DNA of 23,084 nucleotides, counting the filler, from Barthelona sp. PAP020 (taxonomy: Eukaryota), in the NCBI GenBank assembly GCA_040182905.1. It is 20 parts of 20 records of this genome, joined end to end, with 100 filler letters (N's around TTAATTAATTAA, not from the genome) between each part and the next. Parts side by side here need not be neighbours in the genome. Positions count along the whole stretch, not along the records: positions 1 to 1,115 come from JARQWU010001015.1; 19 more parts are not named here. One strand, written 5' to 3'. Numbering within the stretch: position 1 is the stretch's first letter; each line of letters begins with the position of its first letter. The notes below the pieces were generated by a model. That model had not been told where the DNA came from. It worked only from the letters and a program-made list of their open reading frames with translations, and made no database searches. Of the stretch, positions 830-23,083 are shown one piece after another. The position numbers and the translations under genes are program-made.

Positions 830-903
830 TCCTCTCTAGCTCAGTACGGTAGAGTTTCCGGCTTTTAACCGGACGGTCGCGGGTTCGAGCCCCGTGGGAG
901 GAG
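830..903 (+). tRNA. tRNA-Lys (anticodon TTT)
   Basis: Acceptor TCCTCTC/GGGAGGA with discriminator G; D arm GCTC/GAGT; anticodon arm TCCGG-CTTTTAA-CCGGA; T arm GCGGG-TTCGAGC-CCCGT. No encoded CCA. Confidence 0.96.
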
Positions 904-930: not shown

Positions 931-942
931 AGGATCGAGTCT
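931..942 (+). promoter_or_regulatory. Extragenic downstream B-box-like element AGGATCGAGTCT (tRNA-Lys)
   Basis: GATCGAGTC matches the B-box consensus GWTCRANNC. It lies 27 nt after the discriminator, with identical sequence and spacing at the other two tRNAs. Confidence 0.85.
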
Positions 943-966: not shown

Positions 967-1115
967 TTCACACGACAATTCACGTTAGGTACAAGAAAAG
1001 GTATACGAAAGCTTTCACTCGACAAAATAATAAACATTTAATAAAAGCTTTTACTGTTCAAGGTTAGAGTTTGGGTTACTTGTCACTGGTCTGTTGTGCG
1101 TAGATTGGTTCAGAA
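967..1115 (+). mobile_element. Stack of three TTCAC-initiated repeat units (12-nt C stub, 35-nt B unit, diverged long C unit running off the contig)
   Basis: TTCAC at 967, 979 and 1014. The B unit TTCACGTTAGGTACAAGAAAAGGTATACGAAAGCTTT is identical to the minus-strand copy ending at 8481. 1014-1115 aligns with 21111-21212. Confidence 0.75.
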
Positions 1116-4030: not shown

Positions 4031-4339
4031 TTATCTTCAAATTAATTTTTTAATTTAACTTTTTTTTTCTATTTTATAGCCTTTCTTTTTTACATGTGAA
4101 TTCAATGTTGCATTTCTCTTTCGAACTTGACTTTAAAAAGTAGAGAATTTTAGACATTTTACACAGAACCTATAAAAATAATTACCTTGATTGTTTCATT
4201 TTGATTTGAAACAGATAGAAAAAAGTCAATGGAATGCATTCTCCAAAATTACGAAATAATTCAAGGGCATTCATCAAATGTCGGGAAGGTTAATAGTTGT
4301 TTACAAAAGAACATAAACATGTTTATGATTTCTTTTCTT

Positions 4340-4720
4340 TGCAAAGCGACGGATTTCATGCAAATAGACAATATAAATGTGTTTAAAGTTTCTTCTTGCG
4401 ATTTCTGATATTGATGGAAATCAAAATTGACAGTGAAATGACAACATAGAATCATATGATTCAGAGTAATAAGGATACAAGTGTACATAGTAGGTTAACA
4501 AGGAATTACAAGGTTTCATCAAGGAAACCCAGGGAAGAACAATCAAAAGTTATTGGCAAGAAGGGAAAAGATTATCATTTATTTATTTAGATAATCGCCT
4601 CATCCACCTAAAGTATTTCTATTTTTTTTTAAGAGTGTTCTGAACCATCCACGCAAAACGACTCAGTTGCAAGTACCCCCAAACTCTAACCGAGAACAAT
4701 AAAGATCTTTATAAACATTT
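4340..4720 (-). mobile_element. C-family TTCAC element copy (terminus lost at contig end)
   Basis: 4631-4720 is nearly identical to 8073-8162 and to the reverse complement of about 21130-21219. The body aligns more loosely with 7770-8060, 20555-20766 and 21230-21423. Confidence 0.8.
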
Positions 4721-4949: not shown

Positions 4950-5908
4950 ATGAAGGGAAAAAATTTCCTTATTACATTAGGATTCCTTTTATGTTGCTTT
5001 ATTAGTGGTTTTTGTGAGACATTGTTTCAACCAGATGGTACGATTTACTTATCGGAAACTGCAACAAATTTATACACGGATTTTTCTTTCTCATCGTCAA
5101 AAATGTTGCTAGTTGGGGATGAAAATTTATTGGTTTATCATTCAAGAAGAAAAACTAACTATTCATATGAATCGAAGTTAGGATTTCGTGTGATAGATAT
5201 GAACCAATCAACACCTGTTTCAAATTGCCATCATTATGATTCATATGAAATTTTGAATGTTGCTCCCGTGGTCTCTAGCAAGTACCAAAAATTTGCTTTT
5301 TTTGGACGGGATCAAATCTCAAAGGACGTTTACGTTGTAATTTATGAAACAAATTATTCCTCTAATCAAGAATGTAGGCATGTAAAATCAATAAAGATTG
5401 AATCTCTCTTCTCTTTTGCTTCAGGTTCATTGAGTTTTGTTGACAATATCATATATGGTTCCATTTCATCTTATTATTTTAGTGGGACATGTGGGACGTA
5501 TGTTTTTGCCTTTAATGTAGAAACCGATAGCTTCATATATGAAAAGGATGATTACTACGTCCTAACGTTTGACTTCAAGGACCATTATATGTTTTATACA
5601 AAAAACGCTGCGCTTAAAATCCGTGTTTTTAATGGTTCACTGGCCAAAGATTATTCTTTAGACGGTTATGATGCACACACTTGCAATACTGGAAGTTGGA
5701 TGGATGGATACTTTATTGTTTACTGTGAGAATTATGGAAACAAAAAATTGGTTCTGTTTCTTGAGGAAAGCAACTCAAAGCTCTTGGTGAAGAGGCAAGT
5801 CTCTTTGGACGATTACAACTTCATATTGCCATCCCCTGTGCTTGCCGTTGGACACAATTGGTTTAGTTTGTGTGACGTTGAAGCTGATCCATACATTAGA
5901 TATGAATC
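4950..5908 (+). CDS. Predicted secreted or surface protein, beta-rich, 3'-truncated
   Basis: Long ORF from ATG with a signal-peptide-like N-terminus (MKGKNFLITLGFLLCCFISGFC); Tyr/Phe/Ser-rich alternating pattern with scattered Cys. Confidence 0.8.
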
Positions 5909-7542: not shown

Positions 7543-8181
7543 TTTTGAGCTGGGACAGCGAAATTTAAAGCATAAAATCATTCAAGTCGCACAGGTTTCA
7601 GAACACATGCAGAAAGAAAGTAAAAGTTTTCACCAGAACTCCTCCATCAACGTAGAGGGGAAATTTGGCAAGTATTGAAGAAAGAAAAATTTCCCCAAAA
7701 AAATTATAAACTTATCAAAAGTTTTATCCCAAAGTTTTGATTATTTTATTTACTGTTGTGATGTGTTCGTAGCAAAAGCGGATGGATTTCAGGCAAAAGA
7801 GAATATAAATGTGTCTAAGGTTTCTTCTTGCAATTTCTGATATTAATGTGTATTAAAATTGAAAAGCTCAAGTAATAATAAACGTAATCGGAGAATTCAA
7901 AGATTAAGGATACAAGTAAAAAGAATAGGTCAACAAAACAAAGAATATCAAAGTATTACCAAAAGAACATAAGTGGCGACATTTAAAGTGAATCAAGGGA
8001 CTAAAGGAAAGTATTTCACTTTTCTTTAAATACATGCCTCATCTAAACCCAAAGCATTTCCTTTTTTTTTAAAAGAGTGTTCTGAAGCATCCAGGCAAAA
8101 CGACTCAGTTGCAAGTACCCCCAAACTCTAACCGAGAACAATAAAGATCTTTATAAACATTTATTATTATTGTCGTGTGAA
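7543..8181 (-). mobile_element. Longest C-family TTCAC element copy (at least 640 nt), with a degenerate body
   Basis: Begins TTCACACGACAATAATAAT at 8181 on the minus strand. Has a conserved ~110-nt terminus, an A-run, then a body homologous to 4340-4620, 20555-20766, 21230-21423 and 19452-19580. Confidence 0.8.
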
Positions 8182-8445
8182 TTTTAAATCTGGAAAAGAG
8201 GAGATCAAAACAATAAGAATTTCTTTTTCTAAAGGACCGCACCTCTTAACAATTATGAGTTTTTTTTTTTTTTCCAGACTTNNNNNNNNNNNNNNNNNNN
8301 NNNNNNNNNNNNNNNNNNNNNNNNNTTAATTAATTAANNNNNNNNNNNNNNNNNNNNNNNNNNNNNNNNNNNNNNNNNNNNAAACAGCCAGGATTCAAAT
8401 TCAAGGCTTTCCCAACTACTCATTTCAATAACACACCGTATATAA

Positions 8446-8547
8446 AAGCTTTCGTATACCTTTTCTTGTACCTAACGTGAAATTCCCCAACCCCAGTTAG
8501 TAAATATATATTAAAGCCTTTAATTTTGCCCTTTTGTCTAACGTGAA
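8446..8547 (-). mobile_element. Stack of two TTCAC units (A then B) downstream of tRNA-Leu
   Basis: Minus strand reads TTCACGTTAGACAAAAGGGCAAAATTAAAGGCTTTAAT...GGGGTTGGGGAAT from 8547, then TTCACGTTAGGTACAAG...GAAAGCTTTT from 8481. Confidence 0.75.
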
Positions 8548-8552
8548 ATGAG

Positions 8553-8564
8553 AGACTCGATCCT
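8553..8564 (-). promoter_or_regulatory. Extragenic downstream B-box-like element AGGATCGAGTCT (tRNA-Leu)
   Basis: Plus strand agactcgatcct; 27 nt after the discriminator at 8592. Confidence 0.85.
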
Positions 8565-8591: not shown

Positions 8592-8674
8592 TGTATGAGA
8601 CGGGATTCGAACCCGCGCATCCGGAGATACCAGAGCCTTAATCTGGCGCCTTAGACCAACTTGGCTACCCATAC
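8592..8674 (-). tRNA. tRNA-Leu (anticodon AAG)
   Basis: Acceptor GTATGGG/CTCATAC with discriminator A; anticodon arm CCAGA-TTAAGGC-TCTGG; long variable arm; T arm GCGGG-TTCGAAT-CCCGT. Confidence 0.96.
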
Positions 8675-9563
8675 GAGGATTGATTACAAAAGAAAAATTG
8701 AACAAAAATTATCAACTTCGCAAAAAGTATCAAAGAAAATATTAAAATTATATTTTTAAAGAATTTGTATAACAATTTTTTTATTTAAAGTGTTCTAATT
8801 CTTCAACTAAAAGACAGCAAAATACCACGTTGGAACCACTTGACATTTTCATCCTATTTATCACCACAAGTAATTCACTTGAAATTAAGGCAAGATTTGA
8901 ACGTATTGCCTTACTAAGCACAATAAAGAAGAGTAAACCTTTCCTCAATCATAATAATGGGAATGCATCATATATCTTTTTCAGAGAAATCAATAAATTG
9001 TTTAATTGTGTCTTTTCAAGTTTTATTTTCAAAAGTGGAAATAAAAACTTTAAAATTTTACTTTTCTTTTAATAAAAGCGAAATTTCAGTCACTCAATTC
9101 CCCCTGGATTTTGATTGAAAAATTTGCCAAATTGTGTCTTCTGAGTCAAGATTCTTTGTAAATAAACATAGTTTCACAATTAAACCAAATTAGTTCATTT
9201 TGAAATGATCTTGTCTAAGAATGGTTTAACAATAAAATTTCTTTTGAAACTGTTCATTTTAAATAGTAAACAAAAGAGGAACACTGTTTAAGTTAATGGT
9301 TTCCCAAAAAATCATTTAAACCCTCTTTAAGTTACACAGCTAGTGACTAACTATTCCCAAAAGTAATATATAAAAACAATCAAACTGCGATTTATAAGGA
9401 AAGAAGAACTATTTACAAAGCATGAATTGGATAAACATGAAACCACAAACCCACCTTTCTAANNNNNNNNNNNNNNNNNNNNNNNNNNNNNNNNNNNNNN
9501 NNNNNNTTAATTAATTAANNNNNNNNNNNNNNNNNNNNNNNNNNNNNNNNNNNNNNNNNNNNA

Positions 9564-10788: not shown

Positions 10789-11793
10789 TTAATCATCATC
10801 ACTTTCATCAGCATTTTCATCAATATATTGATGCATATTACCACCATTCTTTTTATTAATGTCGACCAGATCCCAACATGTATTAATAACTAAGCCAAAG
10901 TCCATTTGATTCATATATACGCCGGAAGTAACAAATTGTCGTATTAGAGAACTTTTTGCCTTCACTAAAACAAGTGTTGAAATGAGATATCCTTGATTTT
11001 TGACCAATTCAATCAGTTGAGATTGAGAAACGTGACAAAATGTCACATCAACATCTCCTTTGGTTGATGCCTCTCCAGAATTTGCAACATTAATGTATAA
11101 TTTTCCAGACGATTCTTTATGTGCATCCCACAAATCAGAGGGCATATAATATTTGTTGAAAAATACATACATGTCGAATCCATTAACATTAATTTCTGGA
11201 CGATTTAAAAGCATCAAAGCAATATCCAAATGGCCATGATAGGCACTGATAGAAAATGGAGAATGCCTCTTAGAACCTCGCTTATTAACATCAGCACCAT
11301 GGTCCAACAACATTTTGATGATATCAAGATGTCCTTGTCTGCAACTGATGCACAAGGAAGAATATCCTGTGAAGCATAAGTTAACATCAGCACCATGAAT
11401 CAAAAGATATTTGACAATTTCAAAATATCCCAATTTGCAAGCAATATACAATGAAGAAGTACCAATATTGTTGCATGAATTAACATCTGCACCCATTTTT
11501 AGAAGGGTTTTAACAAAATCAAGATTGTTTTCTTGACAACAAACAAACAAGGGAGATTTTCCCAAATTGAGATCTATATCATAATTTTTCAATAAAAAGG
11601 TTGCCATATCAAATGAATGTTTTGAAATGCACCAACAAAATGGAGAAATACCATTTGCATCACATACGTTCACATCAGCACCATTCTTTAATAAAAGATG
11701 AATGATATCAAAATAACCAGACTGGCAACTGACACATAATGGATTAAACTTATTGTTAGGACTTATATTGACATCAGCACCATGGTCCAACAA
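10789..11793 (-). CDS. Ankyrin-repeat protein with a family-specific C-terminal domain, 5'-truncated
   Basis: About 6 repeats of SPL..SC..G..DI..MLL.HGADVN, then a tail ending CWDLVDINKKNGGNMHQYIDENADESDDD. Confidence 0.93.
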   Translation of the reverse strand: MLDHGADVNISPNNKFNPLCVSCQSGYFDIIHLLLKNGADVNVCDANGISPFCWCISKHSFDMATFLLKNYDIDLNLGKSPLFVCCQENNLDFVKTLLKMGADVNSCNNIGTSSLYIACKLGYFEIVKYLLIHGADVNLCFTGYSSLCISCRQGHLDIIKMLLDHGADVNKRGSKRHSPFSISAYHGHLDIALMLLNRPEINVNGFDMYVFFNKYYMPSDLWDAHKESSGKLYINVANSGEASTKGDVDVTFCHVSQSQLIELVKNQGYLISTLVLVKAKSSLIRQFVTSGVYMNQMDFGLVINTCWDLVDINKKNGGNMHQYIDENADESDDD

Positions 11794-11895: not shown

Positions 11896-12141
11896 GAGGC
11901 GGAACTCATTCGATTGTCAAGGGATGGTGGCTATGTATTGTCGAATCTTATGGCTTTGAATATTGATACTCAAGTCATAAGACAATTGGTAGCCGTAGGG
12001 ATATACATGAATGAAGAGGAGTATAACATGATTGTTGACACATGTTGGGATTTATCTGACATTAATGAAATGAAGGGTGGAAATATGCACTCATTTTTCA
12101 ATGAACAAAGTGATCATGAAAGTGATGAAGTTGATGATTGA
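11896..12141 (+). CDS. C-terminal domain of a paralog of the ankyrin family
   Basis: EAELIRLSRDGGYVLSNL...IRQLVAVGIYMN...TCWDLSDINEMKGGNMH aligns without gaps to the tail of 10789-11793. Confidence 0.88.
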   Translation, partial: EAELIRLSRDGGYVLSNLMALNIDTQVIRQLVAVGIYMNEEEYNMIVDTCWDLSDINEMKGGNMHSFFNEQSDHESDEVDD

Positions 12142-12264
12142 TTAGTTGGAAAAATGATCCAAAACATCATTTTAGGAATGCACTGAGAATTTTCTGTTCT
12201 AAAAATTATTTCTTTCATTTTCATTTGGCAGATGTTCCTTGGTATTTTTTTTATTGTTCTTTAA

Positions 12265-14177: not shown

Positions 14178-14300
14178 ATGTCAATCAACTATTGTTGGGA
14201 TTTGATTGACATCAATGAAAGGAATGGTGGTAATATGCGTCATTATATTGATGAAGAGATAGAAGATGACAGTGATGATGATGATGAGATTGATGATTAG
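14178..14300 (+). CDS. Extreme C-terminus of a third paralog of the ankyrin family
   Basis: Manual translation MSINYCWDLIDINERNGGNMRHYIDEEIEDDSDDDDEIDD*. Confidence 0.85.
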   Translation: MSINYCWDLIDINERNGGNMRHYIDEEIEDDSDDDDEIDD

Positions 14301-15351
14301 AAAGGTCTAACTTCACATTAAACTTCCTCTTTCATTCACTACAAAACTCAGACTCTTTGTTTAAAAAACAGAAAATACCTTATTGGACAATTCTTTTAAA
14401 AAGCAAAAGAGCAATTGCTGTATTGCATTGTGTTGTAACTGTTAAAGAGTTCATCATTAAATTTTCGTTGTGCCATTTAATAATGAAGGTAATGTGCTAC
14501 AAATCTTTTTTGGAGTGATCAAAACCAACCAATATTTCTATGTTAACCCCTTCAATTTTTAATTTTCAAAAAAGTAAGTCAGAACTTTAAAATTTTGCTT
14601 TTGCAAAAATACAAAAAAATCAGGGTCAGGAATTTTTTCCAAAGACACAACCTAAATTCACACAATGTACTTTCAGTCTGGATCTCACACCCTGTATTTT
14701 TCCGAAATTCACTAAAATGACTCTTTGGGTTTTTTTTCACTGTAAATAAGTTTATGTCACTACTGGAGCAAAATATAGGGTCACTTTTATCTTTTCTTAT
14801 TGTTACCATATCAATTATTGGAGTCCAATACAACAAGAACAAAAAATATTGATAATAAATGATGTTGCTTTTATTAGTTAAATTGAAGGTCGACACACTA
14901 ACAACATTGGAGACTCTCATTGAAGAAGTGAAAAAGGTTTCATCAATGGAAAAAAACTGGAAATTTGATTCCACATATCGCACTCTTGCAAGTTTAATTT
15001 GTGAATTTCGTGAGTGCAAATATGTCAACACCATCACTACATCAACAAATCTGCAAAATAAATTGGAACAATGTCTTTTGTTAAAAATATTCGAACAAAC
15101 ATCATCATGACAAACTTTCAGAATTGTGTGACATTTTGGCAATGTTTAAATCAATAGCGAAAGTTCAATTGGGTGCATTAATTCGAAAAAGAAGGTCTTA
15201 AGAAAGAATCAAAAACNNNNNNNNNNNNNNNNNNNNNNNNNNNNNNNNNNNNNNNNNNNNTTAATTAATTAANNNNNNNNNNNNNNNNNNNNNNNNNNNN
15301 NNNNNNNNNNNNNNNNCGGTTGACCAAAACAGCAAAGATACCATGGAGTAA

Positions 15352-15457
15352 TTTCCCCAACCCCAGTTAGTAAATATAAATTAAAGCCTTTAATTTTGCC
15401 CTTTCGTCTAACGTGAATTTACCCTTTCGTCCAACATGAAATGCCCTTTTGTTCAAA
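15352..15457 (-). mobile_element. Stack of A-type TTCAC units downstream of tRNA-Arg
   Basis: Minus strand: degenerate TTTGAACAAAAGGGCA, then TTCATGTTGGACGAAAGGGTAAA from 15440, then TTCACGTTAGACGAAAGGGC...GGGGTTGGGGAA from 15417, nearly identical to 8483-8547. Confidence 0.75.
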
Positions 15458-15511
15458 GTAAGCGCTATATCAGTATTTCAGAGATTGGTGCTGAATTTTT
15501 CCAAGTTTTAG

Positions 15512-15523
15512 AGACTCGATCCT
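15512..15523 (-). promoter_or_regulatory. Extragenic downstream B-box-like element AGGATCGAGTCT (tRNA-Arg)
   Basis: Plus strand agactcgatcct; 27 nt after the discriminator at 15551. Confidence 0.85.
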
Positions 15524-15550: not shown

Positions 15551-15624
15551 CGACCGTGAGAGGACTCGAACCCCTAACCTTCTGATCCGTAGTCAGATGC
15601 CCTGTCCAATTAGGCCACACGGTC
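15551..15624 (-). tRNA. tRNA-Arg (anticodon ACG)
   Basis: Acceptor GACCGTG/CACGGTC with discriminator G; anticodon arm TCTGA-CTACGGA-TCAGA; T arm AGGGG-TTCGAGT-CCTCT. Confidence 0.96.
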
Positions 15625-15699
15625 ATGAAAGGTTTTTATAAAGAATATTTCTAAATAAAATTTTTATTTTGAATAAAATTGAAAATGTAAGTGTGTTAA

Positions 15700-16110
15700 T
15701 TTTTTTCAAACCAAAAAACACTGTATGTATGAATAAGCAAAAAAATAATATTTATTTGATTAAAAAAATTTCAAATTTCATTAATTTATTAAAAATTTTA
15801 ATTTTTTTTAAGTGAAAAGTATAACCATAATTTTGTTTTTATTATACAAGAAAATAAAAGCAAAAATGTATTTATAATTTTTTTGGTCAAGTTGTTTCAC
15901 AACTATATTTTTATTTATAAAGAGTAAGCAATCAGAGAAAACTTATTTTATTAAATTTCAGCCACAAAAAATGTGTGACTTTAATAAAATCTTGCTCATC
16001 AAGTGTGAAAATTTTTGGAAAAAGTTTCCATTCCCATTCTTTTGTATTTTGGTAAAAAGTAAAATTTTAAAGTTTAAACTTTACTTGGAAAATCTAAAGT
16101 TTTATTAGAT
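15700..16110. repeat. Two F-family repeat copies in opposite orientations upstream of tRNA-Arg
   Basis: 15719-15771 (CACTGTATGTATGAATAAGC...TTTATTTGATTAAAAAAATTT) aligns with 336-390. The reverse complement of about 16003-16110 aligns with about 415-510. Confidence 0.65.
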
Positions 16111-16317
16111 ATTTATGAGGTATGAGTTGTTCAGTGAACAACGAAACGAGTTAGCTTAAGGTTTGGGGAAAACTCACGTGGATTCAGATGCCTAAGTAAC
16201 TTAAAAAAATTGGACCTAAAGGTGGTCAAGAAACAACAAATATTGGTCCAGTTGTGAAACAACTATATTTATTTACAAAGAAAGTAAACTCAGAAAACTC
16301 ATTCTAGCAAATTTCAG
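15883..16317 (+). repeat. Degenerate ~75-nt direct repeat, copies 360 nt apart
   Basis: TTGGTCAAGTTGTTTCACAACTATATTT...AAATTTCAG at 15883 versus TTGGTCCAGTTGTGAAACAACTATATTT...AAATTTCAG at 16243. Confidence 0.7.
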
Positions 16318-16450
16318 TCAAAATCCCAGGAGGGGAATTGAGGGACTGAANNNNNNNNNNNNNNNNNNNNNNNNNNNNNNNNNNNNNNNNNNNNTTAATT
16401 AATTAANNNNNNNNNNNNNNNNNNNNNNNNNNNNNNNNNNNNNNNNNNNN

Positions 16451-17482
16451 GGCAACATCAAGATGACCATTTTGACAACTTACGTACAATGAAGAACTAC
16501 CATCATTAGAATACAAATTAACATCAGCTCCATGATCCAAGAGCATTTTAGCAACATCAAGATGACCATTATAACAACTAACATACAATGGAGAACTACC
16601 ATCATTAGGAAACAAATTAACATCAGCGCCATGATCCAATAGCATTCTGGCAACATCAAGATGACCATTTTGACAACTTACGTACAATGAAGAACTACCA
16701 TCATTAGAATACAAATTAACATCAGCTCCATGATCCAAGAGCATTTTGGCAACATCAAGATGACCATTATAACAACTAACATACAATGGAGAACTACCAT
16801 CATTAGGAAACAAATTAACATCAGCGCCATGATCCAAAAGCATTTTGGCAACATCAAAATGACCAATTTGACAACTGATGTACAATGGAGAAGCACCATT
16901 TTTTGTACATTGATTGGCATCAGCTCCATGATCCAAGAGCATTCTGGCAACATCAAGATGGCCCTTTTCACAACTGATGTACAATGAAGAAGCATCATCA
17001 TTCATACTCAAATTAACATCAGCCCCATAATCCAAGAGCATTCTGGCAACATCAAAATGACCATTTTGACAACTAATGTACAATGGAGAAGCACCATTAT
17101 CATTGCACAAATTAATATCTGCTCCATAAATCAAGAGCATTTTGGCGACATCAAGATGACCATTTTGACAACTGACGTACAATGGAGAAAACCCCTTTTC
17201 ATCGCACAAATTAACATCAGCTCCATGATCCAAGAGCATTTTGGCAACATCAAGATGACCATTTTGACAACTGATGTACAATGGAGAACTACCATCATTC
17301 ATACTCAAATTAACATCAGCGCCATGATCCAACAAAAACTCAACAACTTCAATTTGCCCATCAAAAGCAGCTCCCCAAAGCGATGTCCTTCCTTCCTTGC
17401 CCTGTTTGTTCACATCAACGCCAGATTTGATACACTGCTTGACAACCTCAAGATTACCATCACATGCTGCATAATAGATCTT
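16451..17482 (-). CDS. Ankyrin-repeat protein (at least 10 repeats), partial at both ends
   Basis: 99-nt tandem units encoding DG.SPLY.SCQNGHLDVA.MLLDHGADVNL; the frame is open across the whole contig. Confidence 0.96.
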
Positions 17483-18709: not shown

Positions 18710-18812
18710 GGAAACAGGCTAGCATATTGTGGGTTTTGCTTGACTCACACAAACGCATCCAAACATTTTCTTGTTGTTGCTCTCTTATGAAATGCCCGCT
18801 GCGCTTCACAAA
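18710..18812 (-). repeat. Terminus of young repeat 'D' (copy 1)
   Basis: 18725-18812 is the exact reverse complement of 20767-20854 (88 nt). Flanks differ and both contigs break inside the repeat. Confidence 0.85.
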
Positions 18813-19451
18813 AATATTCAAAATCGATTGATGTTGTTTTTGAGTAGTTTTAGAGTTTAAAACTAATATTTAGGTTCATCTTTTTGCTTGTTCTTTTTGA
18901 TTCTTTGATCATTCTGTTGAAAGCTGCAAAGATTCTTTTTTATCATTTTTATTTGGAGATACAGATATATTTTTTCATCAAATTTATAAAATGTTGGAAT
19001 GATGTAGAAAAAAAAAAAAGAGGGGTGTTTGGAAGCCTTTTATTTTTGGCGAATCGAAATTTTCCGATTCTTCCTTTTTCCCCCGAGGCACGGAACTTTT
19101 CCTTAACCTACCCCCAAATTTTTGACCTGCCATGGTGAATGCACGAATACTTGCACAATTAGGATAAATATTAAAGAGTTCTGAGCGTTAGGCTCTTTTG
19201 AGCAATTAGTAATGCAATATTTCACACTCCCCTCATAGAGCGTAGCTCTCCTACGAAAGCCTATGAAAGAATAGGTCTCAAAAAAGAGAGGTTCCTTTTA
19301 GGAACGCTGAACCCCTTGAAAAGAATAAATATTTAGGTTTATTATTTATTAATCAACTGAGTTTCCCAGTCTCTGATTTGGGAAAGTTCTGGAAAAGGTT
19401 CGTACAAGAAGAAAAAATTTGGAAATCTCTTTGTATGTATTTCTTTTTCTT

Positions 19452-19580
19452 TTTTGAGCTGGTACAGCGAAATTTTCAACATCTGAACATGTCCAACTCC
19501 TACAGGTCTCAATACTTGTACGTTAATAAATGAATCAGTTTTCAACCAGAACTCCATAAATGTGGAAGAGATATTATTGG
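19452..19580 (-). mobile_element. Degenerate distal body of a C-family element
   Basis: TTTTGAGCTGGTACAGCGAAATTT...ACAGGT...AGTTTTCAACCAGAACTCC aligns with 7543-7670. Confidence 0.6.
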
Positions 19581-19624
19581 TTTTGTTGTTTCGTTAGTCC
19601 AGTTTCTACGAATTCAATTCATTA

Positions 19625-19732
19625 ATTTGGCAACAACAAAAATTTCACCGAAAGAAGACGCAAAGGAAGAACTAACCAAAATACTCCTGCATATAAAGCT
19701 AATAATCCCATAAGAAAGAAAATTTTAAATCT
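19625..19732 (+). repeat. Terminus of young repeat 'E' (copy 1)
   Basis: 19625-19730 is the reverse complement of 20955-21060 with one mismatch in 106 nt. Confidence 0.85.
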
Positions 19733-20554: not shown

Positions 20555-20766
20555 AGCAAATGGGGAAGGATTTCACATAAAAGACAATATAAATGAATTT
20601 CTGGTATTAGTTGGTATCAAAATAAAAGCTCAAGTAGTAAAATGGAATTGTAAGAATTCTAAAATCAAGGATATAAGTAAATAAAACGGGTTAAGAAAGA
20701 ATATCAAAGTTTTTCAAAGAGAACATGAGTGGAAACATTTAAAGTGAATATAGGGGGTGAAGGAAA
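20555..20766 (-). mobile_element. C-family element body, interrupted by repeat D
   Basis: GGATTTCACATAAAAGACAATATAAATG...AAAAGCTCAAGTA...AAAGAATATCAAAGT...ACATTTAAAGTGAAT aligns with 7785-8010. Confidence 0.75.
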
Positions 20767-20854
20767 TTTGTGAAGCGCAGCGGGCATTTCATAAGAGAGC
20801 AACAACAAGAAAATGTTTGGATGCGTTTGTGTGAGTCAAGCAAAACCCACAATA
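20767..20854 (+). repeat. Terminus of young repeat 'D' (copy 2)
   Basis: TTTGTGAAGCGCAGCGGGCATTTC...; identical to the reverse complement of 18725-18812. Confidence 0.85.
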
Positions 20855-20954: not shown

Positions 20955-21060
20955 ATTTAAAATTTTCTTTCTTGTGGGATTATTAGCTTTATATGCAGGA
21001 GTATTTTGGTTAGTTCTTCCTTTGCGTCTTCTTTCGGTGAAATTTTTGTTGTTGCCAAAT
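20955..21060 (-). repeat. Terminus of young repeat 'E' (copy 2), abutting a TTCAC stack
   Basis: 105/106 identical to the reverse complement of 19625-19730. Confidence 0.85.
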
Positions 21061-21064
21061 AAAT

Positions 21065-21423
21065 TTCACTTGACAAAATTCACGTTAGACGAAAGGGCAA
21101 AATTAAAGGCTTCACACGACAATAATAATAAATGTTTATAAAGATCTTTATTGTCCTCGCTTAGAGTTTGGGGGTACTTGCAACTGAGTCGTTTTGCGTG
21201 GATGATTCAGAACACTCTAAAAAAAAAAAGAAATACTTTAGGTGTGGATGGGGCAGGTATTTAAATAAAAGTTTATTAATCTTTTCCTTCTTACCAATAG
21301 CTTTTGATTCTTCTTCCAAGGGTTTTCCTTGATAAAACCTTGTAATTCCTTGCTAACCAATTAGATTTCTATCAATAACAGAAATTGCAAGAAGAAACCT
21401 CAAACACGTTTATGTTGTCGTTT
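21065..21423 (+). mobile_element. Stack of three TTCAC units (14-nt C-type stub, 32-nt A unit, long C unit)
   Basis: TTCAC at 21065, 21079 and 21111. The A unit is identical to the start of the minus-strand copy at 15417. The C unit is nearly identical to 8073-8181 (-). Confidence 0.8.
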
Positions 21424-21750
21424 GGGAGAAATTATTCCTCCTTGCTATCAAAACTTCAGATGTAATTTGGGCAATTATATCATTATCTCATTGTTTGACA
21501 TTGATATATTTGTGATATCAAGAATAGTTGGTATCTTTCTTTCTTATTCCATATATTTGGAGAACAATAAATTTGTAATAAGTTGGACCCCATCATTTAA
21601 ACCTTGTAATGAAAAACAAAAAAATCAAAAAATTATTGCACATAAACTGAATGCAAAAAAAAAACATGACCTCAACAATTTCACATTTATAACACAAAAA
21701 AGAAAAACAACGTCTCCAAGACAATGTTTCTCTTAAAAGATGATTTGCAA

Positions 21751-22081: not shown

Positions 22082-23083
22082 TTACAAATGCAATAAATAC
22101 TTGGGAGTTGCTGAAAATTTGGCATATCCTTTCACAACTTTATTAATAGCATCCAAGAAATCCTTTTCAGTTACTACTTTTCTTCTGGCTCTTATAGCAT
22201 ACATTCCAGCTTCTGTACAAACAGATCTTATATCAGCACCAGTAGTATTCGTACATAATCTTGCTAAAAGATCAAAACGAATGCCCTTTTCAATAGCCAT
22301 GTTGCTGGTGTGTATCTTAAATATGTGTGCTCTTCCTTCTAAATCAGGTAAACCAAATTCAACTTTTCTATCAAGTCTACCAGGTCTTAATAAAGCAGGG
22401 TCTAATGTGTCAGGACGATTTGTGGCCATGATAACCTTCACATTACCTCTGGTTTCAAATCCATCAAGTTGATTCAACAATTCAAGCATGGTTCTTTGGA
22501 CTTCATTATCGCCAAACTCTGAATCTCCAAAACGAGTCCCACCAAATGCATCAACTTCATCAAAAAATATCACACACGCTGGCTTTGTTCGAGCAAGCTT
22601 AAACAGTTCACGAATCATCCTAGCACCTTGTCCAACATATCTTTGGAGCAATTCAGATCCAATAACGCGAATAAATGAAGCTTCAGTTGCGTTGGCAACT
22701 GCCCTGGCAATAAGCGTCTTTCCAACACCAGGAGGACCATAGAGAAGAACACCTTTAGGTGGATCAATTCCCAAACGTGTAAAATGCTCAGGATGCAACA
22801 ATGGACGTTCAATAACTTCACGTAATAGTTCTATTTGTTCCGAAACACCACCAACATCATTATATGTAACATCAGGACGATCTTCAACTTGCATTGCAGA
22901 AACAGAAGGATCGATCTTGGGAGGCAATGGTAATTTAATCGCTAATTTCTGTCTATCAACACCAACTCTCATATCTTCTTGTATATCTTCTTCCTTTGTG
23001 TTATTGGCAAGTCCTGTTAAAAATTTTTGATGCTGGACATTTATTACATACATTTTGGAATCTGATGGATCATCTGGTTCAAG
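22082..23083 (-). CDS. PSMC2: 26S proteasome AAA-ATPase Rpt1, 5'-truncated
   Basis: [29 protein letters not shown], Walker A GPPGVGKT, Walker [21 protein letters not shown]-terminal FSATPKY. Confidence 0.96.

Follow-up and report, generated by a model that had tools for sequence, protein, structure and literature searches.

Short non-coding units that start with the terminus TTCA(C/T) lie behind all three tRNA genes in a stretch of AT-rich DNA from Barthelona sp. PAP020 (23,084 nucleotides, called the window here), and they constitute a real feature, which reads as tRNA-gene-targeted mobile DNA and is notable for single-base precision and for the probable lineage of its host. The window consists of 20 contigs of 1010-1115 nt joined by linkers, and all evidence on the repeats comes from these 21 kb and the three tRNA loci. 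Mobility directed by tRNA genes is probable, whatever the class of the element, and the units are best explained, tentatively, as non-autonomous mobile elements of the Helitron2/Helentron rolling-circle type. The combined reading, in which a rolling-circle family tethered to Pol III genes would insert with single-base precision at +110 in a non-amoebozoan, possibly metamonad, host whose external B box at a fixed +28 evolved independently, appears somewhat unlikely as a whole.

A mobile habit downstream of tRNA genes has so far been described only for retrotransposons of social amoebae, and the occurrence of both an external B box and downstream-targeted elements in another lineage would show convergence across eukaryotic supergroups. 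The rolling-circle type, if true, would mean that host transcription complexes can steer one more class of transposase; ruler-type targeting was not found described for eukaryotic rolling-circle elements in the literature searched. An exact start at +110 would give a sharp tether geometry, with possible use for safe-harbour insertion.

Position of the units behind the tRNA genes

Three tRNA genes were detected in the window (Table 1), and Rfam returned only these and one sub-threshold riboswitch match. The motif GGATCGAGTC is identical behind all three intact genes and starts exactly 28 nt after the discriminator in each case. The B-box-like 10-mer is absent from the rest of the window, and the pattern of a tRNA B box with GGATCGAGTC downstream gave 3 matches in the window and 0 in 100 shuffles. 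The extra box, which reads GATCGA, departs in one base from the B-box consensus (GTTCRANNC), and A is the base that eukaryotic initiator tRNAs have there. For the evolution of Pol III promoters, too, it is of interest that three unrelated tRNA genes have an identical B-box-like 11-mer at exactly +28. Elsewhere, the tRNA-plus-extra-box pattern matched 1 viral, 37 metagenome and 36 genome contig loci, and these 74 were treated as chance because all have 45-75% GC and nothing in common with the window except tRNA sequence in 2 of them. The terminus patterns had no match in the viral or metagenome contigs.

Table 1. Position and strand of the features in the window. Offsets (+) are in nt after the discriminator, on the strand of the tRNA gene.
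Feature	Position	Strand	Remark
tRNA-Lys(TTT) gene	830..903	+	
Extra B-box-like motif behind tRNA-Lys	932..942	+	28 nt after discriminator
C-type stub, 12 nt	967..978	+	+63 from tRNA-Lys
B stub, 35 nt	979..1013	+	+75 from tRNA-Lys; identical to start of 8481
Diverged C-type unit (C1)	1014..1115	+	starts +110 from tRNA-Lys; leaves contig
C element	4341..4720	-	first 19 nt absent (contig end); far boundary visible
Complete C element, 410 nt	7772..8181	-	both ends visible; preceding 100 nt without tRNA
B unit	8382..8481	-	starts +110 from tRNA-Leu; leaves contig
A stub, 66 nt	8482..8547	-	+44 from tRNA-Leu
Extra B-box-like motif behind tRNA-Leu	8553..8563	-	28 nt after discriminator
tRNA-Leu(AAG) gene	8592..8674	-	
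A unit	15317..15417	-	starts +133 from tRNA-Arg; leaves contig
A-type stub, 23 nt	15418..15440	-	starts +110 from tRNA-Arg; 3 differences from A
Possible third A-type stub, more decayed	15441..15461	-	judged by eye
Extra B-box-like motif behind tRNA-Arg	15512..15522	-	28 nt after discriminator
tRNA-Arg(ACG) gene	15551..15624	-	
Block X	18710..18812	+	end at 18812 matches contig 18 base for base
Block D	19621..19732	-	98% identical to 20955-21064; no TTCAC unit after this copy
C element remainder, ~+170 to far boundary	20556..20766	-	abuts end of X directly
Block X, second copy	20767..20854	-	88/88 identical
Block D	20955..21064	+	left flank of three-unit cluster; without tRNA or extra B box
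C-type stub, 14 nt	21065..21078	+	
A stub, 32 nt	21079..21110	+	
Complete C element, 335 nt	21111..21445	+	68-nt internal deletion; no stub remainder behind

The sequence-only reading had described TTCA(C/T) units past the extra B box of every tRNA, on its own strand, and this was the case for 3/3 genes; all 11 unit starts that it listed, with their strands, and its distances to the first unit (63 nt for Lys, 44 nt for Leu and 110 nt for Arg) were also confirmed. TTCA(C/T) alone is common (224 sites, 5.3 per kb per strand of the window). The blocks behind it, however, are shared well beyond chance (BLAST E 1e-10 to 1e-78), and the A/B terminus pattern gave 5 matches in the window and 0 in 100 shuffles. 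The family had been placed on 8 of the 20 contigs; A, B or C sequence was found on 7, while contig 17 is tied to them only through two other repeated blocks. Two stretches given as C, 4340-4720 and 20555-20766, are indeed C sequence but have no TTCAC end.

The starts range from +44 to +133, and a start at exactly +110 is common to all three loci. In a simulation devised after the pattern had been seen, with 3, 2 and 2 starts drawn from the observed window, a common offset arose in 0.12-0.15% of 200,000 random trials. At the Lys locus the +110 start lies 35 nt into a B unit and at the Leu locus 66 nt into an A unit, and the B and A units interrupted there each exist uninterrupted on another contig. 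The +110 targets thus differ in sequence, not in distance, and it is apparently the tRNA gene, not the target sequence, that fixes where a unit lies. Nested insertion at a measured distance would produce such a pattern, with the same distance inside different older units. The addition of truncated copies on the tRNA side is not expected to give it, since each added stub would displace the outer start by its own length. A helical period in the offsets, tried on 5 values, is not claimed.

Three of the five clusters with a visible left flank lie within 135 nt of a tRNA gene in the same orientation (chance ~9e-6), and this, with the 3/3 genes and the common +110, supports the earlier proposal of a tRNA-aimed mobile family in fixed orientation. 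In the other two clusters (8181 and 21065), the 100 and 110 nt up to the contig end contain neither a tRNA nor an extra B box. Host repeats flanking tRNA genes could also be spread by gene conversion or segmental duplication, the link being inflated by contigs breaking at repeats. The window does consist of 1-kb contigs only, of which several end about 100 nt inside a repeat (the three tRNA contigs end 100-102 nt into the last unit, as is expected where an assembler meets near-identical repeats); in addition, all three tRNA contigs have other upstream repeats in common, the bodies of the units are mosaic, and no empty tRNA allele was seen. Nevertheless, we consider such a non-targeted origin quite unlikely, because all 11 junctions start at the same terminus, which faces the tRNA at the tRNA loci, because stubs of three subfamilies are stacked in different orders, and because the spacers between tRNA and first unit are unrelated among the three loci, the extra B box excepted. 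The contig bias would also leave the orientation and the +110 offset unexplained.

A second AT-rich repeat family (305-653, 9015-9195, 14551-14643, 15688-15811 and 16006-16350; 70-83% identity; tandem period of 223 nt at 314/537) was found upstream of each of the three tRNA genes and also on contig 13, its copies varying in orientation and order; it had no Pfam match. The left flank of the complete C element in contig 7 (8182-8281) contains a 13-nt A run, and its last 10 nt match the end of contig 17 exactly; this flank may belong to block D as its upstream part. The idea that an extra B box is cut by the end of contig 7, so that 8181 would lie at +133, was set aside, as it rests on 5 letters.

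Structure of the units and their candidate class

CA is preceded by 2-3 T at 11/11 starts, and CAC follows 2-3 T at 10 of them. A, B, C and the diverged unit C1 (the 1014 copy) have little in common beyond the terminus and a palindrome, AAAG-N0-2-CTTT, which occurs 11 times in the window, 8 of these at +27 to +31 of such units. Short units end at the start of the next unit. At the other end, all four C copies with a visible far end lose similarity at the same boundary, placed to within a few nt, and block X, likely the far end of another subfamily, ends at the same base in 2 copies. Identity among three C copies is 94-100% in the first 120 nt and falls to 42-90% in the body, which is a mosaic in that one segment pairs contig 7 with 18 and contig 4 with 19. 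Indels of 5, 20 and 68 nt between C copies, with a longest stop-free run of 63 codons, argue against coding. Just past the C far boundary at 4305-4336 there is an imperfect 32-nt palindrome not common to other copies.

None of the three far ends that could be checked (7772, 21445 and 20767) has a target-site duplication next to it; the best candidate consists of 6 AT-rich letters about 23 nt beyond 7772. No poly(A) tail was found, the run at the TTCAC end being at most 3 nt; the far ends are A-rich in 1/4 C copies and have 3-5 A in X. In the 9 stretches around the repeats, 54 read-through frames had no Pfam family at E 1 and no match to RepHel, RT or another transposase. The sequence-only reading had assumed variable truncation of the end away from the terminus and, from this, target-primed reverse transcription, for which target-site duplications and an RT or transposase domain were to be sought. 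This does not agree with the far boundary common to the C copies, with the cutting of short units by the next unit, or with the lack of duplications and domains in the places and frames just given. The analogy with TRE3 for an RNA ending GUGAA beside the gene is not supported either, as TRE3, according to the cited passages of PMC5911963, lies in the transcriptional orientation of the tRNA itself, i.e. the opposite one.

Even with the truncation argument dropped, the units could be SINE-like passengers of a non-LTR retrotransposon, made from an RNA ending ...GUGAA with its 3' end toward the tRNA, with T-rich sites some 110 nt downstream of the tRNA nicked by a tethered endonuclease. At 5/8 junctions the uninterrupted parent also has the T or TT with which the unit begins, as short priming would give, and the identity of C copies peaks in the 120 nt that begin with TTCAC. 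A 13-codon stretch near the C far end reads alike toward GTGAA in three copies, possibly as a decayed reading frame, with 2/1/4 variable columns by codon position and only sub-threshold Pfam matches; its codon-position bias is not significant (4 of 7). The 3' stem-loop that serves L2-type elements as an RT recognition signal, and their short-repeat tails, would be a precedent. We regard this SINE-like origin as unlikely, given the boundary common to 4/4 C copies, the base-exact end of X, the lack of a duplication, of a tail longer than 3 nt and of an RT match, the orientation opposite to TRE3, and the fact that TREs make tandems without inserting into each other. The hallmarks of non-LTR elements are 5' deletions and variable target duplications, in the part of PMC5391098 cited. 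A SINE derived from tRNA was rejected, since the three tRNAs are different and intact, have their own T-runs and unrelated spacers, and C copies have no tRNA-like part.

In 3/4 C copies and in X, the terminus recurs as an inverted, imperfect copy 14-21 nt in from the far end; in the fourth C copy it is decayed. Under three scoring schemes these inverted copies rank 5-21 of 268 candidate TTCA(C/T/G) sites, which amounts to two independent positives, as the three C copies are not independent of each other; block D was negative (98-124 of 268). In pairwise tests the inner inverted repeat was not significant (C far ends p 0.14 or worse), and a profile of the C far ends matched neither X nor D. The candidacy of block D as the far end of subfamily A failed on both the profile and the ranking. 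Terminal folds were no better than shuffles in 11 of 12 cases: one of six 5' ends was better, and none of six far ends was, with no shared stem there.

CAC ends are typical of Transib, Chapaev and CACTA elements. With CAC after 2-3 T at nearly every start and GTGAA or a variant near each far end, the units could be a decayed CAC-ended MITE of one of these groups, or a recombinase element with a T-rich core, which the lack of a duplication would suit. However, similarity runs 14-21 nt past the inner GTGAA though the left flanks differ, so that the inverted repeats are not terminal, and no constant core lies behind the X far end; another non-autonomous DNA class of this kind is thus very unlikely.

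The exact start, the defined far boundary, the lack of a tail or duplication, the variable T count and the stacks of 5' stubs match derivatives of Helitron2/Helentron elements. Helitron2 begins with a 5' T, and its inverted repeat sits 0-2 bp from one end (5') and 20-30 bp from the other (3') (PMC3627910, in the portion cited). According to passages of PMC5148889, Helitron2 in Fusarium start with TCAG and have several short 5' termini, which are explained by self-insertion; their 5' duplications of 31-85 nt are put down to self-insertion together with movement of the composite, and FoHeli3-5 are also without a 3' hairpin. Helentron derivatives have no duplication and vary in terminal T number (extracts of PMC4067079), and a further description of Helitron2/Helentron derivatives that matches these units appears in the cited part of bioRxiv 10.1101/2025.11.06.686955. 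With HINE, DINE-1 and FoHeli the units share the T-started 5' end of variable T number, the lack of a duplication, rows of short 5' termini, and subfamilies with little in common but the terminus; the palindrome near the 5' end and the asymmetric inverted repeat (8-15 bp in that class, weak here) are candidate further parallels. Unlike that class, they have no conserved 3' hairpin, an imperfect inverted repeat 14-21 nt from the end, no partner found, and a link to tRNA genes; no report of a Helitron tied to tRNA or Pol III genes was found in the open-access literature searched. As for the Helitron2/Helentron target rule of insertion between T and T/C, with T on both sides, the parent continues with T at 5/8 starts, and X is followed by TT in one copy and by AA in the other. 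The lack of an empty allele among the three tRNA loci and the two clusters without a nearby tRNA stand against the reading of the units as tRNA-targeted rolling-circle elements. Because of the missing 3' hairpin, the weak inverted repeat and the partner not found, the Helitron2/Helentron reading, though the best of those considered, stays tentative, and the units are not filed as members.

We infer that the units are mobile. In the proposed mechanism, the transposase would come from a putative autonomous partner at another place in the genome, and a protein complex sitting on the tRNA gene and the extra B box behind it, presumably TFIIIC, would position the enzyme. Each new copy would land at a set distance from the tRNA gene and split the copy already at that site, producing stacks of 12-66-nt 5' stubs, and the remainders would sometimes be lost through composite moves or recombination between nested copies. 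Contig 18 shows a remainder of a split copy, X being followed there by C sequence that starts near +170, and contig 7 shows one weakly. In contig 19 no stub remainder follows the C copy, for which reason simple nesting alone was rejected there. Composite movement like that in the cited passages of PMC5148889 would also remove remainders.

Known tRNA-targeting systems and placement of the host

According to a 2018 review (PMC5911963, in the passages cited), dictyostelid genomes are the only ones in which elements are found to insert downstream of tRNA genes, and the origin of such insertion has been called open (PMC5006619, likewise). TRE3 resembles the units in its fixed orientation downstream of tRNA genes (40-150 bp) in hosts with an external B box (PMC3159450; PMC5911963, both in part), which 66% of the tRNA genes of Dictyostelium have, at a distance of about 41 bp downstream (same part of PMC3159450). 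Whereas TRE3 are APE-RT elements of 4-5 kb that have poly(A), occupy a broad window and form tandems but do not nest, the units here are 335-410 nt long and non-coding, with one exact start at three loci, nested stubs and no tail or duplication. The extra box also differs from the dictyostelid one in its position at +28, its GATCGA and its apparently non-amoebozoan host.

LTR retrotransposons as a rule have TG...CA ends and a 4-6-bp duplication. The units could be solo LTRs of an element like Skipper-2, which integrates 7-133, 54-136 or 26-97 bp downstream of tRNA genes and has LTRs of 208-315 bp (PMC5006619, in the sections cited); this 7-136 bp window and LTR size come close to the range of 44-133 and the 335-410 nt seen here, and both ends are defined and the bodies mosaic. 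Such an origin is improbable in view of the ends, which are not TG...CA on either strand, the lack of a 4-6-bp duplication at 3/3 sites, the lack of a primer site or internal region beside any copy, and the placement of the host outside amoebozoans by RPT1. Dada DNA transposons target tRNA genes and those of other small RNAs; they are sequence-specific and insert inside the gene with 6-7-bp duplications (extracts of PMC3706591), whereas here the tRNA genes are uninterrupted and the units start 44-133 nt away from them in unrelated sequence. No report of external B boxes in other protists or of Barthelona transposons was found in the open-access literature searched.

Eukaryotic genes in the window encode a kinesin, RPT1, a proteasome alpha subunit, a CBF/Mak21 protein, a thymidylate kinase and ubiquitin. 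The CBF protein has 28-29% identity to its 2 matches, and RPT1 (22085-23083) is at most 75% identical to any of its best 120 matches. In the RPT1 tree the host joins Barthelona with SH-aLRT 99 (119/120 matches) and 100/99 (26 chosen rows), and a clade with Ceratiomyxa and Clastostelium was rejected (p-AU 0.010); this is one gene with both branches long, and no named dictyostelid is among the matches. The host is probably not an amoebozoan and perhaps a metamonad, as far as this gene indicates. The RPT1 divergence and the grouping with Barthelona suggest that it may be an unsampled deep lineage.

Some further observations concern reading frames. The open frames 1216-2057 (280 codons) and 4950-5906 (319 codons) had no Pfam family. 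A decayed reading frame at 19267-19620 gave weak F-box-like leads (atlas scores <0.9), and its ORF 19267-19530 had no homologue among longer proteins; a 71%-identical stretch is present at 7543-7642, beyond the far end of the C copy in contig 7, and this sequence is possibly a captured or pseudogene fragment. Paralogous C-terminal ends (...CWDL.DINE..GGNM...acidic tail) occur at 10792-10919, 12002-12152 and 14193-14303, one of them on an ankyrin-repeat protein, and the ankyrin family appears expanded, with nine 99-nt repeats also at 16451-17482.
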